Below, piece by piece: positions 1 to 61,334 of a DNA stretch of 64,000 nucleotides; positions within the stretch are counted from its first letter, which is position 1; every line of letters begins with the position of its first letter. The notes under the pieces were generated by a model, which had not been told where the DNA came from, did not search any database, and was given only the letters and a program-made list of their open reading frames with translations. A program made the position numbers and the translations under genes. Where the stretch lies: NCBI RefSeq assembly GCF_003334335.1, contig NZ_QOWQ01000011.1, one strand, 5' to 3'. Source of the stretch: Escherichia coli. GTDB taxonomy: Bacteria > Pseudomonadota > Gammaproteobacteria > Enterobacterales > Enterobacteriaceae.

Positions 1-456
1 AGTACGGATTTGGGGACGAAAAACACATCGTCGTTTGATTACGGAACCAAATCCACGAATAACACCGGGGCGCATACCCATAGTATTAGCGGGACTGCAA
101 ATAGTGCCGGTGCGCACCAACACAAGAGTTCCGGTGCATTTGGTGGCACGAACACGAGCATTTTCCCTAATGGTTATACCGCGATTTCAAATCTAAGCGC
201 GGGGATTATGAGCACAACAAGCGGTAGTGGCCAGACTCGTAATGCAGGGAAGACATCATCAGATGGTGCTCATACCCACTCGCTGTCCGGCACTGCTGCA
301 AGCGCAGGCGCACATGCACATACTGTCGGTATTGGTGCTCATACGCACTCCGTTGCGATTGGCTCACACGGACACACCATCACCGTTAACGCTGCTGGTA
401 ACGCGGAAAACACCGTCAAAAACATCGCATTTAACTATATTGTGAGGCTTGCATAA
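1..456 (+). CDS. stf: Phage side tail fibre protein, C-terminal part (5' end outside window)
   Basis: Open frame from base 1 with no upstream stop. Gly/Ser/Thr-rich with repeated GAHTHS / GAHAH / GSHGH motifs, like the His-x-His motifs of T4 gp37 and lambda Stf distal fibres. Its stop overlaps the start of the next gene. Confidence 0.7.
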
Positions 457-1037
457 TGGCATTCAGAATGAGTGAACAACCACGGACCATAAAAATTTAT
501 AATCTGCTGGCCGGAACTAATGAATTTATTGGTGAAGGTGATGCATATATTCCGCCTCATACAGGTCTGCCAGCAAACAGTACCGATATTGCACCGCCAG
601 ATATTCCGGCTGGCTTCGTGGCTGTTTTCAACAGTGATGAGTCATCGTGGCATCTTGTTGAAGACCATCGGGGTAAAACAGTTTATGACGTGGCATCAGG
701 GGACGCGTTATTTATTTCTGAACTCGGCTCATTACCGGAAAATGTTACCTGGTTATCCCCGGAAGGGGAGTTTCAGAAGTGGAACGGCACAGCCTGGGTG
801 AAGGATACGGAAGCAGAAAAACTGTTCCGGATCCGGGAGGTGGAAGAAACAAAAAACAGCCTGATGCAGGTAGCCAGTGAGCATATAGCGCCGCTTCAGG
901 ATGCTGTGGATCTGGAAATCGCAACGGAGGAAGAAACCTTGTTGCTGGAAGCCTGGAAAAAGTATCGGGTATTGCTGAACCGTGTTGATACGTCAACTGC
1001 ACAGGATATTGAATGGCCAGTAGCACCTATAGGGTAA
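456..1037 (+). CDS. tfa: Phage tail fibre assembly protein
   Basis: 193 aa ORF starting at the ATG that overlaps the fibre gene stop (TAATG). The sequence resembles Tfa-family chaperones of lambdoid and P2-like phages. Confidence 0.75.
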
Positions 1038-1895
1038 ATTCGTAATGATTACCTAAATACGTTATTCTTTTGTTCAAAAAGTGATTTTGCTATAGATAGG
1101 GAGTATGTTCTTGGATTAAGAATAAAAATCGCCATGAAAGAGCTTCATGGCGAGTACATAAACGTACAAAATGTGATGAAAGTAGAGTGGCGTAAGCCAC
1201 TATATTAAGATGTGACAATAGCGAAGAAAAGTAAATAACATTTTATGGACGTTTAATTGTTAATTATAAAAACTAGAGTGCCCGATATTGTTTACCTTGC
1301 TTTAAAATAATGTACTCAAACCAAATTTTTGAGCTAAAAGCTCAAATAATATAAATGCAATAATAATGTTTAATAAGACAATTAGCTTGCTTTGTATTTT
1401 CATTTCGGAATACTGTTAAGTAACTTTGATGACCCTAACAATAGATCGGAATTTTCTTAGAGTCAATGGTCACTGTTTTTGCTTGCAAAGCAAATGTTTT
1501 GGTGGTTATAAGTTGTCTTAATATAGTCACGCATGCAACTTGTTCCATGCGGAGATTAAAGATTGGAATATAACGCTAAGATGGAATTAAATTACATTTG
1601 CAATAATCAATTTATTATTACTCAATAATTACCGATATTATTATTGTAAATTAATCATTAGAGTGCAAAAAGAAATGTAACGGCAAAATAAGAGGACGAT
1701 AGCTGAGAAAAAAGCGTGCTTTCCCAATCTGGGGCAAATCACGTCTGAATGACACCTGAAAACAGGTGGTAGCCTCAAGAAGGCTTGGAATATTCTTCTT
1801 TAATGTTATGTAATTCATTGATTTTTCGTGTACGATTTAAAGACATTTATTCCAAGAAAAATTTTTAACTCTTTGATTTTTCGACTCTGTATCAT

Positions 1896-1957
1896 CGGTC
1901 TCGAAAACCGGAGTAGGGGCAACTCTACCGGGGGTTCAAATCCCCCTCTCTCCGCCA
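1896..1957 (+). tRNA. 3' fragment (about 62 nt) of tRNA-Ser(CGA) (serU-like): anticodon stem, variable arm, T arm and acceptor 3' strand ending CCA. Not a complete tRNA.
   Basis: CGGTCTCGAAAACCGGAGTAGGGGCAACTCTACCGGGGGTTCAAATCCCCCTCTCTCCGCCA matches the 3' two-thirds of E. coli serU as I recall it. The 5' acceptor strand and D arm are missing; upstream sequence is unrelated AT-rich DNA. Confidence 0.7.
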
Positions 1958-2541
1958 CTTTATCAATGACTTATCTCCCGACTTCCCGCCTTGCTTTTCC
2001 TAAACAGAACAATCGTAGAATATTCTTGAAGGGTTAGATCGTCACTGTTTTCTGTTCGATACTGTGACATTCAGCACTTGATTCGCTATGGATCTGACAG
2101 GAAGGTTTTGAGCGAAAATTTGCAGTTATTCAGTCGTTTTCTTATCGGTCACCATTATTCTTTTAGACATTGATCCTACAAAGCTGCCGCAAAGTTGGTG
2201 GTGGGAACTGAAGTTGCGTAGAGAAGGGGTCAATACCCGGAGGCAAACATGGGCTGGCAAAAGTGTAGCGGTATTAGGCGCAGCTATTTAGCCTAGTTAT
2301 GTTTTATGAAAACTTGATATCATATAAGTGTCTTACTTATTGGCTGTAAATAAGTTTTTCCTAAGGAATTGTTTCTTGAGTATCATTTGTAACTGTAACG
2401 GAATTTATAATCCTTTGCTTTATTGTTACGGTATTTTTTATCACACCCTATTTTTTATGTGGTTTTTTATACTGAAGTTTGGCAAAGTGAACTTTATATG
2501 CATATACTTCATCCTGGTTTCAGTTAAGTTGGGTGGATGAT

Positions 2542-3285
2542 ATGGCAACTACATGTTCAGTTATATTGATTTTGGAGTCCTTTGATGTTTATTTCGGAAA
2601 AGAGAGTGTGTTTCTGGAGAGAGGTTCATCTGTACTTGTCGACTCTAGCTCTAGAGATTTTTTCCTGACATATCCTGAAAGAGTGATAGTGGCGGATTTT
2701 GGCGCTGAGTTTATTAGTCGCTATTTGAAAGCTAATAACTTAAGGGATATTTCTGATTGTAGGGAATATCCATCTTATTTAAAAATAAACTTTGCTGACT
2801 TCAGTTTAATTAAAGGATTAATTAGTTGGGCTAATCACTGTGCTGAATACATAGAAATTTTTGATGAGTCTATTGCTTTTACATGTCTCTCTGCATTTTC
2901 TTCTGAAAAACAATTTGGAGTATTTCTGTTTGAATGTTTGAAAAGCACAGGGGCTAAAGTTAAAACGATTATTCATACGGATTTATCTGCACCATGGCGT
3001 CTTAAGGATATATCATCAAGATTATATCTCAGCGAAAGTTTACTAAAGAGGAAATTGAAAGAAGAGGGGGTATCATTCAGTAAGATCATACTTGATGAGA
3101 GGATGCAAATGGCTGAATATTTACTCAGCACTCGTTGTTATCCTATTAGTAAAGTAGCTAAGGTCTGTGGTTATGCCAGTGTCTCATACTTTACTTATGT
3201 ATTTAGACGTTATTTTGGTGTTTCTCCAAGTCAATACTCTCAGAGCAGTTCAGAAAGTAAAATTCTTACTCACCAGGGAATCTGA
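2542..3285 (+). CDS. AraC/XylS-family transcriptional regulator, AppY/EnvY/Rns-like, low GC
   Basis: C-terminal helix-turn-helix region (ISKVAKVCGYASVSYFTYVFRRYFGVSPSQY) and overall similarity to prophage-borne AppY. ATG at 2542 preferred over the GTG at 2533 used by the ORF track. Confidence 0.75.
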   Translation: MATTCSVILILESFDVYFGKESVFLERGSSVLVDSSSRDFFLTYPERVIVADFGAEFISRYLKANNLRDISDCREYPSYLKINFADFSLIKGLISWANHCAEYIEIFDESIAFTCLSAFSSEKQFGVFLFECLKSTGAKVKTIIHTDLSAPWRLKDISSRLYLSESLLKRKLKEEGVSFSKIILDERMQMAEYLLSTRCYPISKVAKVCGYASVSYFTYVFRRYFGVSPSQYSQSSSESKILTHQGI

Positions 3286-3289
3286 TCAT

Positions 3290-3790
3290 TGTTCTTGCCC
3301 CCTTATTTCCAGACAGGGGGTGTATCTTAAGTTAACGTTACCCGCTGACGTCGATATTCTCGCGGAGAGCGATAACCCAACGCACTGTGCGGATGGTTTT
3401 CATTGTAATGTTCGATCGCCACTGCAAGATTATGCAATGCCGTTCTTACATTCGGTTTCGGCATGAACGCGATGTAGTCTTCCTTCATCGTTTTCACGAA
3501 CCTTTCTGCCATTCCATTACTCTGAGGACTGCTGATTGCCGTTGTGCAGGGCTCCAGATTCAACTCTCTGGCGAACTGCCATGTTTCATGCGCTCTATAC
3601 GCTGAACCGTTATCTGTCAGCCACTGGATGGACTGTTCCGGTACTTTATCGCCAAAGCGTTTTTCTATCGCTCCTAACATGACATCCTGCACTGTCGCTT
3701 TATCGTAACCTCCCGTGCTTGCGGCCCAGTCTATGGCTTCACGATCGCAACAGTCCAGGGCGAACGTAACACGCAGTTTTGAATCGCCAC
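3290..3790 (-). mobile_element. IS3-family (IS2-like) insertion sequence remnant: one terminal inverted repeat plus the 3' part of the transposase gene
   Basis: Terminus TTGCCCCCTTATTTCCAGACA at about 3291-3311 resembles the IS2 right inverted repeat. The adjacent minus-strand ORF encodes a DDE transposase C-terminus. The element is cut off near 3780-3790 by a second IS end. Confidence 0.55.
3327..3692 (-). pseudogene. Truncated IS3-family transposase OrfB (C-terminal about 120 aa only)
   Basis: Translation ends ...[20 protein letters not shown], the conserved C-terminal signature of IS3-family DDE transposases. The N-terminal catalytic region is absent. Confidence 0.6.
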
Positions 3791-4080
3791 GGGTTTAACA
3801 GACACCTCAGAGTCATTTAAGATGGCTTAAAGAGAGGTGCCCATGAGCGGTAAGCGTTATCCCGAAGAGTTTAAAACTGAAGCAGTCAAACAGGTTGTTG
3901 ATCGCGGTTATTCTGTTGCCAGCGTTGCAACACGTCTCGATATCACCACCCACAGCCTTTATGCCTGGATAAAGAAGTACGGTCCGGATTACTCCACTTT
4001 TTCATCAAGCCAATCCGCCCACCACTGCATCATTTCTCTGCGCTTATCGAGATACTGAGCGTGGTTGTAAATTCAGCTAA
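3781..4080 (+). mobile_element. Second IS3-family insertion sequence remnant: left end plus truncated orfA
   Basis: TGAATCGCCACGGGTTTAACAGACACC resembles IS3-family left ends (TGA...GTTTAAC.GACAC, as in IS600). It is followed by an OrfA-like helix-turn-helix ORF and ends abruptly before the tI/sib hairpin. Confidence 0.5.
3837..4058 (+). pseudogene. Truncated IS3-family transposase OrfA (helix-turn-helix domain intact, C-terminus degenerate)
   Basis: N-terminus MSGKRYPEEFKTEAVKQVVDRGYSVASVATRLDITTHSLYAWIKKYG is a typical OrfA helix-turn-helix. No leucine zipper, frameshift window or orfB follows. Confidence 0.6.
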
Positions 4081-4088
4081 CCCAGTGT

Positions 4089-4136
4089 GTTGACAAAAAA
4101 TTAGCGCAAGAAGACAAAAAAATCACCTTGCGCTAA
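4089..4136 (-). terminator. Lambda tI/sib-like hairpin adjacent to the att P arm
   Basis: 10-bp inverted repeat TTAGCGCAAG / CTTGCGCTAA with a 16-nt loop, followed on the minus strand by TTTTTTG. It is the reverse complement of the lambda sib/tI sequence as I recall it. Confidence 0.55.
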
Positions 4137-4138
4137 TG

Positions 4139-4300
4139 CTCTGTTACAGGTCACTAATACCATCTAAGTGGTTGATTCATAGTGACTGGATATGTTGTGT
4201 TTTGTAGCATTATGTAGTCTATTTTTTAGACTGAATAAATTATAAGTCGTTGATATTAATTGTTTTTACCGTTTCACATTCAACTTTTTTATACTAACTT
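4139..4300. other. attR: Prophage attR (lambda-type P arm, core CTTTTTTATACTAA at about 4284-4297, bacterial B' arm)
   Basis: TCTGTTACAGGTCACTAATACCATCTAAGT... closely matches the lambda P arm; it diverges toward the core. Core and downstream CTTGAGCGAAACGGGAAGG match the E. coli attB side. Confidence 0.75.
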
Positions 4301-10480: not shown

Positions 10481-12502
<2,022 letters not shown>

Positions 12503-12540
12503 CAGGATAGCGAAGAAGACTGATGACAAACGGAAAACAG

Positions 12541-12637
12541 CCTGATGCGCTACGCTTATCAGGCCTACATTTTCTCCGCAATATATTGAATTTGCGCGGT
12601 TTGTAGGCCGGATAAGGCGTTCACGCCGCATCCGGCA
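12541..12637. repeat. Composite REP unit (two opposed REP palindromes around a shared spacer)
   Basis: CCTGATGCGCTACGCTTATCAGGCCTAC ... CAATATATTGAATTTGC ... GTAGGCCGGATAAGGCGTTCACGCCGCATCCGGCA. Confidence 0.85.
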
Positions 12638-12693
12638 TAAACAACGCGCACTTTGTCTTCAATAGGAAGCCGGAATTTTCCTTCGGATTTCCG

Positions 12694-13823: not shown

Positions 13824-13883
13824 AAAGTGTGGATGGTAAAAATCTCATTTACACGCTAGTATCGGCATAACCACTAAACACTC

Positions 13884-13998
13884 TAGCCTCTGCACCTGGG
13901 TCAACTGATACGGTGCTTTGGCCGTGACAATGCTCGTAAAGATTGCCACCAGGGCGAAGGAAGAAATGACTTCGCCTCCCGTATCTGGAAAGGTGTAC
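13884..13998 (+). ncRNA. Moco (molybdenum cofactor) riboswitch-like leader of moaA; boundaries approximate
   Basis: A conserved Moco RNA motif is known directly upstream of moaA in E. coli. Placed by position; I did not check the fold. Confidence 0.5.
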
Positions 13999-14988
13999 AT
14001 GGCTTCACAACTGACTGATGCATTTGCGCGTAAGTTTTACTACTTGCGCCTGTCGATTACCGATGTGTGTAACTTTCGTTGCACCTACTGCCTGCCGGAT
14101 GGCTACAAACCGAGCGGCGTCACCAATAAAGGCTTTCTTACCGTCGATGAAATTCGCCGGGTTACGCGCGCCTTCGCCAGTCTGGGCACCGAAAAAGTGC
14201 GCCTGACAGGAGGAGAGCCGTCTTTACGCCGCGACTTTACCGATATCATCGCCGCTGTGCGGGAAAACGACGCTATCCGCCAGATTGCGGTCACAACCAA
14301 TGGTTACCGTCTGGAACGCGATGTGGCGAGCTGGCGCGATGCGGGACTTACTGGCATTAACGTCAGTGTCGACAGTCTGGACGCCCGCCAGTTTCACGCT
14401 ATTACCGGGCAGGATAAATTCAACCAGGTCATGGCAGGGATTGATGCTGCATTTGAGGCCGGTTTTGAGAAGGTCAAAGTCAATACCGTGCTGATGCGTG
14501 ATGTTAATCATCACCAGCTCGACACCTTTCTGAACTGGATCCAGCATCGCCCTATCCAGCTGCGTTTCATCGAACTGATGGAAACGGGCGAGGGCAGCGA
14601 GCTCTTCCGTAAGCATCACATCTCTGGTCAGGTTCTGCGTGACGAGCTACTGCGTCGCGGCTGGATCCACCAATTACGTCAACGCAGCGACGGTCCCGCG
14701 CAAGTCTTTTGCCATCCAGATTACGCCGGAGAGATTGGCCTTATCATGCCGTATGAAAAAGACTTCTGCGCCACTTGCAACCGCCTGCGCGTTTCCTCCA
14801 TTGGTAAACTCCATCTCTGCCTGTTTGGTGAAGGCGGCGTTAACCTGCGCGATCTGCTGGAAGACGATACCCAGCAACAGGCGCTGGAAGCGCGTATTTC
14901 AGCGGCGCTGCGGGAGAAGAAACAGACCCATTTCCTGCATCAAAACAACACCGGTATTACGCAAAACTTATCGTACATTGGCGGCTAA
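13999..14988 (+). CDS. moaA: GTP 3',8-cyclase (radical SAM)
   Basis: Start set at [31 protein letters not shown] (329 aa). Confidence 0.95.
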
Positions 14989-16702: not shown

Positions 16703-16712
16703 TTTTTTGTTA

Positions 16713-16740
16713 GCCGGATAAGGCACCGCTGCGTCCGGCA
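16713..16740. repeat. Single REP element after moaE
   Basis: GCCGGATAAGGCACCGCTGCGTCCGGCA. Confidence 0.7.
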
Positions 16741-16838
16741 ATTTCACCGCTCAGTACATACGTTTACGCTGCGTCGATGCACAGCCTCATCATTTTGCAG
16801 TATCCTTAAGATATTCCTTATATCTTCAGGAGATCGTC

Positions 16839-29191: not shown

Positions 29192-29244
29192 TCTTTTATG
29201 CCGGGCTATGCCCGGCATCAGGCTGATGAACAAACGCAAAACTG

Positions 29245-29341
<97 letters not shown>

Positions 29342-29422
29342 ATTTCACAACAAGCACTTGTCAGCAATTTGAGAACACGGGAAAAAATTTATCTGTTTTA
29401 CCGCCCATAAGCCACCGAGACG

Positions 29423-33293: not shown

Positions 33294-34391
<1,098 letters not shown>

Positions 34392-34494
34392 AAAAAAGCC
34401 CGTCCAGTGGCGGACGGGCAAACAAGGGTAACATAGGATCAATGAGGGTTAGAGCATATGCGTCTGTCGGCAAACAGACAGGGAAATACTTGTG

Positions 34495-34617
34495 CTGGAC
34501 GTAGCGTAAACGCCTGATCCGTCCAACGGTTCGGATTTTGTAGGCCTGATAAGACGCGGTAGCGTCGCATCAGGCATCTGTTGCCGGATGCGGCGTAAAC
34601 GCCTTATCCGTCCTACG
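34495..34617. repeat. REP cluster between ybiC and ybiJ
   Basis: Several REP palindromes (GTAGGCCTGATAAGACGCGGTAGCGTCGCATCAGGC, CCGGATGCGGCGTAAACGCCTTATCCG). Confidence 0.8.
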
Positions 34618-34619
34618 AA

Positions 34620-34880
34620 TTACTTATAAATTACCGCAGTACCGCTTAATTTATTGTTGTTGGTGGCGGAAGTGATGCTGTATCCACTGGCACCGGCTGC
34701 CGCGGCTTTCTCAGCCAGTTTCGCTTCCAGGGCATCGAGGGTGGATGCGCCATCGGCAGAAACCACGCCGATTTTATTCATGTTCTGTGCCTGGGATGCC
34801 GTTACCGGTTCCGCCGCGAACACGCCAAATGACAGAGTTGAAAGAGCCATAGCAGCAACAACAGTATTGATAGTTTTCAT
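34620..34880 (-). CDS. ybiJ: DUF1471 (YhcN-family) small periplasmic protein
   Basis: 86 aa, signal peptide, C-terminal ...TAVIYK. Confidence 0.9.
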   Translation of the reverse strand: MKTINTVVAAMALSTLSFGVFAAEPVTASQAQNMNKIGVVSADGASTLDALEAKLAEKAAAAGASGYSITSATNNNKLSGTAVIYK

Positions 34881-42435: not shown

Positions 42436-42586
42436 GACTCCTCCAGTGAGAAAATAGAGCAAAAAGATAAGTATAGATGCTGGAGGAGGGGCGATTTTAA
42501 ATGAGAGGAATCTGGTGTGCCTCCCTTTCGGGTGAAAGGGAGGAAGGGATATTAAGCAGGTTGCTGACAACGTGCGGGCTTTTTTG

Positions 42587-42688
42587 CCGGATGCGGCGTG
42601 AACGCCTTATCCGTCCTACAAGTTCATGCAATTTTAATAAGTTGCCAGATATCCTGTAGGCCTGATAAGCGTAGCGCATCAGGCAATG
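42587..42688. repeat. Composite REP unit, opposite orientation to 12541-12637
   Basis: CCGGATGCGGCGTGAACGCCTTATCCGTCCTAC ... GTAGGCCTGATAAGCGTAGCGCATCAGGC. Confidence 0.8.
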
Positions 42689-54510: not shown

Positions 54511-54571
54511 GTGATTATCCGTCACCCCGATACTGTCGGGGTGACGGCGGCTGATGACAAATGCAAAATAG

Positions 54572-54670
54572 CCTGATGCGCTACGCTTATCAGGCCTACG
54601 CAGTACCTGCAATATATTGAATCTGCAGGACTTTGTAGGCCGGATAAGGCGTTAACGCCGCATCAGGCAT
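54572..54670. repeat. Composite REP unit, third copy in the same orientation as 12541-12637
   Basis: Same architecture and spacer (CAATATATTGAATCTGC). Confidence 0.85.
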
Positions 54671-54750
54671 TAACAAAGCGCATTTGTCAGCAATCTGAGT
54701 AACGTCGAATCGATTTTCTTAATCCCACATCAATTCACTTCCATTAATTC

Positions 54751-61259: not shown

Positions 61260-61334
61260 CCGGACGTTCTGCATCCTCATAAATTGCTGATGACGTGGCG
61301 GAGTGCCGCGTCTTATCAGGCCTGGAGGTGGCAA

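Follow-up and report, generated by a model that had tools for sequence, protein, structure and literature searches.

Three BIME-1 repeat units at transcription-unit 3' ends in a 64-kb segment of an Escherichia coli genome

The window analyzed here, a stretch of 64,000 nucleotides from Escherichia coli (contig NZ_QOWQ01000011.1), contains three direct copies of a composite repeat, located after uvrB, rhlE and ybiT, and a fourth copy on the opposite strand after glnQ. The three direct copies are almost certainly full-length members of the BIME-1 family (also RIB or RIP), with a likely role of IHF and REP hairpins at transcript 3' ends, and the glnQ copy is a degraded member. The identity of the elements is held with high confidence and their local function with moderate confidence; from the sequences we infer that IHF occupies these particular loci and that RNA is stabilised there. 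An earlier note on this DNA had reported three near-identical composite REP units of roughly 97 bp together with two inverted relatives. This was a correct sighting of an already known family, which was described in 1991-93 and is catalogued in E. coli K-12. The note overlooked that the spacer of the units is the IHF-site linker L of this named family and that one of the two relatives, the cluster at 34.5 kb, is another BIME class.

Genomic context of the repeats

Positions 4284 to 64000 of the window align gap-free to the genome of E. coli K-12 MG1655 with 99.79% identity, and window position x corresponds to MG1655 position x + 803045. According to the MG1655 annotation, the interval 12541-12637 lies between uvrB (+) and ybhK (-), 29245-29341 between rhlE (+) and ybiA (-) and 54572-54670 between ybiT (+) and ybiU (-). 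The plus-strand copies were confirmed at these three positions. All three are extragenic and lie between convergent genes (uvrB|ybhK, rhlE|ybiA, ybiT|ybiU). The fourth unit (42587-42688) follows glnQ (-) and precedes ybiO (-), and the remaining interval (34495-34617) follows ybiJ (-) and overlaps the small features ybiE and zbiJ. The repeats had been said to mark operon ends, and indeed every unit sits at the 3' end of a transcription unit. No repeat feature is annotated at any of the five intervals in the MG1655 RefSeq annotation.

Positions 1 to 4283 of the window are not MG1655 sequence. They are 98% identical to the right arm of the lambdoid phages ev099 and mEp332 and contain tail fibre, tail-fibre assembly, transposase and AraC-type regulator genes; an Rfam IS009 match (799-997) is located inside this stretch. 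The phage-like sequence joins the chromosome at about position 4284 in the ybhC|ybhB interval, which we take to be the lambda attachment region, and the strain therefore carries a lambdoid prophage there. A molybdenum-cofactor riboswitch upstream of moaA (13867-14011, +; Rfam RF01055, 103.6 bits) is a known and expected feature of the region.

Anatomy of the three direct copies

The three direct copies were dissected into the following parts.

12519-12667, + strand: full BIME-1 unit between uvrB and ybhK (dissection, match to the 130-copy consensus, block absent in APEC O1)
Parts of the uvrB copy, + strand: left outer motif 12519-12539; Y REP 12540-12568; L spacer 12569-12602; Z REP 12603-12637; right outer motif 12638-12667
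12579-12591, - strand: IHF-consensus core of the uvrB copy, reading ATTCAATATATTG, a 12/13 match to WATCAANNNNTTR
29223-29372, + strand: full BIME-1 unit between rhlE and ybiA (dissection, homology break of strain 2779 at the left end)
Parts of the rhlE copy, + strand: left outer motif 29223-29243; Y REP 29244-29272; L spacer 29273-29307; Z REP 29308-29342; right outer motif 29343-29372
29283-29295, - strand: IHF-consensus core of the rhlE copy
54550-54698, + strand: full BIME-1 unit between ybiT and ybiU (dissection, decayed E. albertii orthologue, deletion in EC0026B)
Parts of the ybiT copy, + strand: left outer motif 54550-54570; Y REP 54571-54599; L spacer 54600-54634; Z REP 54635-54669; right outer motif 54670-54698
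54610-54622, - strand: IHF-consensus core of the ybiT copy

Each copy consists of two opposed REPs, Y and Z, with GTAG/CTAC at their inner ends, around a long spacer. The glnQ copy shares this arrangement, with GTAGGAC at one end. The Y-type arm GCCTGATGCGCTACGCTTATCAGGCCTAC is found at all three direct loci, and its 28 nt inside the 97-nt interval are 100% identical. The Y REP of these copies is of the short-loop type. The Z-type arm GTAGGCCGGATAAGGCGTTnACGCCGCATCCGGCA is likewise present at all three loci and is 89-94% identical; its loop differs between the copies (TTCAC, TTTAC, TTAAC), and the ybiT copy reads CATCAGGCA in place of CATCCGGCA. The description of the copies as near-identical thus holds for the Y arms (28/28) but is somewhat generous for the whole 97-nt units, which are 85-89% identical. 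Exact runs shared by two copies reach at most 29-30 nt. Each of the four loci has a single unit, with no tandem reiteration.

The spacers are 34-35 nt long and 66-78% identical in pairwise comparison. All three contain the invariant core CAATATATTGAAT, and over the 19-nt core GCAATATATTGAATyTGCr the direct copies share 18 or 19 of 19 positions. The copies therefore have more in common than the generic REP palindrome, and the earlier description as composite REP units with a conserved spacer is borne out for them. In the window, the 19-nt core GCAATATATTGAATTTGCA occurs three times at up to 3 mismatches (0.03 expected) and the REP end motif 13 times (0.40 expected), so that the repeats are far beyond chance. 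On the minus strand of each spacer, ATTCAATATATTG lies at the identical position and matches WATCAANNNNTTR in 12 of 13 positions, against a background of 0.59 such matches per kb per strand in the window. In the uvrB copy this IHF core falls within an Rfam ES036 match (12561-12602, - strand).

The extent of roughly 97 bp given earlier was drawn too narrowly, for the conserved sequence extends past both ends of the 97-nt core, by about 21 nt on the left side and about 30 nt on the right. The flanks common to the three copies read CTGATGACAAAyGCAAAAyw on the left and aACAAaGCGCAyTTGTCAGCAATyTGA on the right. The full unit measures about 150 bp and comprises a left outer motif (consensus CTGATGACAAACGCAAAAyt, ~21 nt), the Y REP, the L linker, the Z REP and a right outer motif (consensus aACAAaGCGCAyTTGTCArCAATCTGA, ~30 nt). 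The outer motifs are probably the flanking motifs 'A' and 'B' of BIME-1 in the work of Gilson and Bachellier.

Assignment to the BIME-1 family

The BIME-1 of Gilson, Bachellier and colleagues is reportedly the same element as the RIB of Boccard and Prentki and the RIP of Oppenheim and colleagues, both of 1993. BIME-1 was described as a combination of z1 and y REPs with a long, well-conserved linker L, a frequent IHF site and an occurrence as single units (Ton-Hoang et al., 2012; PMC3333891). The same definition was given by Nunvar et al. (2010; PMC2817692), citing Boccard and Prentki (1993), and Oppenheim et al. (1993) are cited for these IHF-site elements by Delihas (2011; PMC3184786). The elements of the window have the opposed Y and Z REPs, the L linker of 34-35 nt with an IHF core, the single-unit occurrence, the extragenic 3'-end position and the dozens of copies per genome that characterise the family. 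The three direct copies differ from it in nothing essential, whereas in the glnQ copy the linker is diverged and lacks the IHF match, the Z arm reads GTAGGAC and the left outer motif is missing.

BIME-2 and atypical BIMEs, such as REP325, the source of naRNA4, are made of the same REP palindromes in alternation. They have short linkers without an IHF site and a long-loop Y REP, are reiterated in tandem and are preferentially cleaved by gyrase. Because of the long L linker and the short-loop Y REP, the three direct copies do not belong to BIME-2. A more distant likeness exists to MITE-type repeats with IHF sites, such as the Correia element of Neisseria, which are intergenic, about 100-160 bp long and polymorphic in presence and absence, have terminal inverted sequence and an internal IHF motif, and are co-transcribed with upstream genes (PMC3184786). 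Their sequence, however, is unrelated. BIME-1 is built from GTAG/CTAC REPs tied to a tyrosine (HUH) transposase and has no long terminal inverted repeats and target-site duplications; its outer inverted repeat amounts to only about 7 nt at the consensus level.

The Rfam model RF02751 (ES036/CssrF) matches all three spacers on the minus strand above the gathering score. This model comprises 43 nt and is the reverse complement of the linker plus the Y REP edge. Since it is the linker read backwards, a match reports membership in the repeat family and not an sRNA gene. In annotations, the appropriate label for these stretches is BIME-1 repeat, not sRNA gene or novel motif.

A decayed copy after glnQ and a three-REP cluster after ybiJ

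Two further loci had been described as inverted relatives of the same unit. They were dissected as follows.

42556-42685, - strand: decayed BIME-1-like unit after glnQ, upstream of ybiO (dissection)
Parts of the glnQ copy, - strand: Y REP 42685-42656; L-like spacer 42655-42620; Z-type REP 42619-42585; right outer motif 42584-42556
34493-34616, no strand assigned: three-REP cluster, BIME-2-like or atypical BIME (alternating orientation, after ybiJ)
34493-34527, - strand: degenerate Z-type REP of the cluster
34540-34576, + strand: long-loop Y REP of the cluster
34582-34616, - strand: Z-type REP of the cluster

The relationship stands for the copy after glnQ with regard to layout, as Y REP, spacer and Z REP follow each other on the minus strand in the same way, but the spacer is only 60-67% identical to those of the direct copies. 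No IHF-consensus match at up to 1 mismatch was found in this spacer. The Z arm reads GTAGGAC, the left outer motif is absent and the score against Rfam ES036 (20.7 bits) is below the threshold of 37.6. By its sequence, the copy is a degraded member of the BIME-1 family.

At 34495-34617, in contrast, the description as two REPs around the conserved spacer does not apply. Three REPs alternate there, separated by linkers of about 12 and 5 nt that are unrelated to the L spacer and contain no match to its core. An Rfam naRNA4 match was obtained at 34543-34613 (- strand, 78.4 bits). The arrangement fits the BIME-2 or atypical type, and the cluster represents a different BIME class from the direct copies. 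The MG1655 annotation places two features over and beside the cluster (window 34390-34620), the small-protein gene ybiE and the sRNA zbiJ. The ybiE reading frame therefore overlaps a degenerate REP, and zbiJ is located just beyond the cluster on the ybiJ strand. Isolated REP remnants are also present elsewhere in the window: a solitary decayed Z-like REP directly follows moaE (16706-16742), and a Y REP fragment, CGTCTTATCAGGCCTGG, lies between the convergent genes fsaA and moeB (61305-61325).

Copy number and taxonomic spread

The linker alone is present in all 5,426 complete E. coli genomes, where the median count per genome is at least 26, a lower bound given the short linker query. In a scan of one genome per species with the pattern GGCCTAC-N8-10-GCAATATATTGAA, more than 120 stretches matched among the matches listed. 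They belong to several Escherichia species-level groups, E. albertii, E. whittamii and Pseudocitrobacter. The matches listed also include short contigs with Escherichia-type BIME-1 in assemblies labelled Bacteroides, Collinsella, Desulfosporosinus and Methylobacterium, which are most likely E. coli DNA contamination.

An alignment of 130 non-identical copies shows 60-90% conservation to about 22 nt on the left and about 31 nt on the right of the REP pair. These flanks lay outside the search pattern, and the full unit is therefore about 150 bp long. In the consensus, the outer motifs are mutually inverted over no more than about 7 nt (TGACAAA/TTTGTCA). The idea that a long-range outer helix is under selection was considered and dropped: pairing within a copy is no better than with the flank of another copy (6.51 within copies, 6.39 ± 0.10 after partner shuffling). 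Copy-specific compensatory pairing was likewise not found in the linker stem (3.53 versus 3.45 ± 0.05 with shuffled partners). As we see it from these comparisons, the outer inverted repeat is probably a consensus feature and not a selected helix. RNAalifold, applied to the 130-copy alignment, returned only fragmentary REP stems with a covariation term of -0.15 kcal/mol; this result is uninformative because alignment gaps break the stems. Given the lack of copy-specific compensatory change, there is no sign that an RNA fold other than the REPs is under selection.

Occupancy of the three loci in other strains

E. albertii and cryptic Escherichia lineages also carry the unit at these three loci, which indicates that the insertions are old and that the copies persisted across species. 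The E. albertii orthologue of the ybiT copy is decayed, with CCTGG for CCTAC and GCAATGTATTG for the core. To count filled sites in E. coli, queries made of the unit and 150 nt of flank on each side were used, and a site was taken as filled at a coverage of at least 80%. Among the 5,426 genomes, the site is filled in 3,676 cases at uvrB, in 4,301 at rhlE and in 2,685 at ybiT. About 21-51% of the genomes have no full-length filled site at one or other locus, and none of the three copies is therefore indispensable.

Three strains illustrate the other alleles. In APEC O1 the uvrB|ybhK interval is 154 nt shorter, and exactly the block from left to right outer motif is missing; a private hairpin next to ybhK is kept in this empty site. 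In strain 2779 the homology downstream of rhlE ends at the left edge of the unit (window 29222 onward), and a PaaA2/ParE-type toxin-antitoxin pair replaces the BIME-1 and ybiA, a replacement seen in some E. coli genomes. A laboratory derivative of strain EC0026B carries a 73-nt deletion in the ybiT unit (window 54590-54662), between an ATCAGGC repeat in one REP arm and its counterpart in the other. It removes the IHF linker and leaves one chimeric REP. This repeat pair exists only because the Z arm of the ybiT unit reads CATCAGGCA and not CATCCGGCA.

Transcript 3' ends and proposed function

Each 150-nt unit folds well below shuffled controls (z -3.2 to -6.9). A hairpin followed by a U tract and associated with a unit was found in none of the four intergenic regions on either strand. 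In the data of Adams et al. (2021; PMC7815308, supplementary file 2), bicyclomycin-sensitive Rho-dependent regions are reported at MG1655 positions 815186 (-), 857953 (+) and 845551 (-). These correspond to window positions 12141, 54908 and 42506 and are located, in the direction of transcription, 378 nt (uvrB|ybhK), 210 nt (ybiT|ybiU) and 50 nt (glnQ) beyond the units; the positions are approximate because the method compares 800-nt windows. The Term-seq 3' ends curated in the same study, which are based on uniquely mapped reads only, include none inside the units (PMC7815308). Downstream of rhlE and ybiT, a private hairpin is located between stop codon and unit. A transcript may therefore meet another protective structure before it reaches the unit.

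In the model of Peters and of Dar and Sorek (2018), Rho terminates downstream, and exonucleases degrade the transcript up to a stable hairpin, in many cases a REP, that defines and protects the 3' end. The observations on the units agree with this model. They also agree with a recent description of REPs as combined attenuators and stabilisers with a link to Rho, in which convergent genes sharing a REP were more highly expressed (Harris et al., 2026). Binding of IHF to the linker of the family is documented (literature cited in PMC2817692, PMC3333891 and PMC3184786); the IHF ChIP study of Prieto et al. (2012) contains no discussion of REPs.

Based on these reports, the units would act on two levels. 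On the DNA level, IHF would bind and bend the L linker between the two REPs. On the RNA level, transcripts from either flanking gene would enter the unit and, REPs being palindromic, G+C-rich REP hairpins would form in the RNA of either strand. Rho would then halt transcription a short way past the unit, and 3'-to-5' exonucleases would trim the RNA to the REP hairpins, which would set and stabilise the 3' end of the mRNA. With regard to origin, a non-autonomous repeat spread by a REP-associated tyrosine transposase has been proposed in the literature. Such a spread would explain the many copies and the presence or absence of whole blocks.

Alternative explanations

Some features of the units would also fit bidirectional intrinsic (Rho-independent) terminators for convergent gene pairs, as three of the four units are located between convergent genes and stable hairpins form on both strands. 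We regard this as improbable, since the REP stems lack a following U tract on both strands, the terminator scan returned none associated with the units and Rho-dependent regions are located beyond three of them. The bicyclomycin sensitivity of these regions implies that transcription passes through the units. A function as small-RNA genes, with ES036/CssrF read from the minus strand of the spacer and naRNA4-like RNAs from the REPs acting in trans, e.g., in nucleoid organisation, is slightly less probable still. Rfam matches at gathering score were obtained for ES036 at all three spacers and for naRNA4 at 34543-34613, and most REPs are transcribed (Qian et al., 2015). However, the ES036 model is the reverse complement of linker and REP edge, promoter-like sites were not found in any of the intergenic regions, and each genome has dozens of copies of the element. 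The units contain no curated 3' end (Adams et al., 2021; PMC7815308), and for REP325/naRNA4 no role in chromosome compaction was seen by Harris et al. (2026), who report a local 3'-UTR role instead.

The earlier note had further regarded the copies as substrates for recombination. That they matter chiefly in this way, by deleting or duplicating the 17-42-kb segments between them, is very unlikely. They are direct repeats of about 150 bp with 85-89% identity, and older reports describe duplication join-points mediated by REPs, but exact runs of 29-30 nt are only about the minimal length for RecA-dependent exchange. Chimeric deletion junctions (uvrB-rhlE, rhlE-ybiT, uvrB-ybiT) were found in 0 of 5,426 complete E. 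coli genomes. The rearrangements that were seen are presence or absence of a whole unit and the 73-nt deletion within a unit; exchange between units was not seen. Recombination between the copies is possible in principle and, as judged from these deletion junctions, has left no trace. It is easier to imagine, though in our opinion still rather unlikely, that the units are purely selfish, decaying non-autonomous mobile elements without host function, whose position at operon ends results only from the removal of insertions elsewhere by selection. The presence or absence of whole blocks, the sites filled in only 3,676, 4,301 and 2,685 genomes, the decayed ybiT orthologue in E. albertii, the glnQ copy without IHF match and left motif, the lack of copy-specific covariation and the location of the units distal to gene-proximal hairpins would all agree with this, and activity of REP-associated transposases on REPs and BIMEs is documented (PMC3333891). 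On the other hand, the three loci are also occupied in E. albertii and the cryptic Escherichia clades, the REP arms kept 89-100% identity, in contrast to the drifted spacer flanks, and IHF binding, mRNA stabilisation and attenuation by REPs or BIMEs are published (PMC2817692; PMC3333891; Dar and Sorek, 2018; Harris et al., 2026). A selfish element is moreover compatible with the preferred reading as BIME-1 units acting through IHF and REP hairpins, because it concerns the origin rather than the present effect.

The whole block as a variable unit

Two observations, both minor, may go beyond the textbook description of BIME-1: the whole block as the unit of insertion and deletion, and its occurrence in arrays. 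We suggest only tentatively, and with more doubt than belief, that the whole block of about 150 bp is the functional and mobile unit, which is gained and lost precisely, rewires shared convergent 3' UTRs and amplifies into arrays in some lineages. If these behaviours are undescribed, they would be a modest extension of BIME biology. As filled and empty alleles occur among thousands of sequenced strains, they form a natural experiment on REP and IHF function. The alleles at the three loci offer a contrast for measuring how a BIME-1 affects convergent genes in their 3' ends and expression, a question under continuing debate (Harris et al., 2026).

BIME-1 is usually described as single units (PMC3333891). 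Unlike this, tandem arrays with a period of 181-182 nt were found in two cryptic Escherichia genomes, where the repeated segment consists of the whole BIME-1 unit and a 30-nt extra hairpin. The array comprises about 7 copies in Escherichia sp. MOD1-EC7003 and 2.2 copies in Escherichia sp. E1V33, with an identity of 94-97%.
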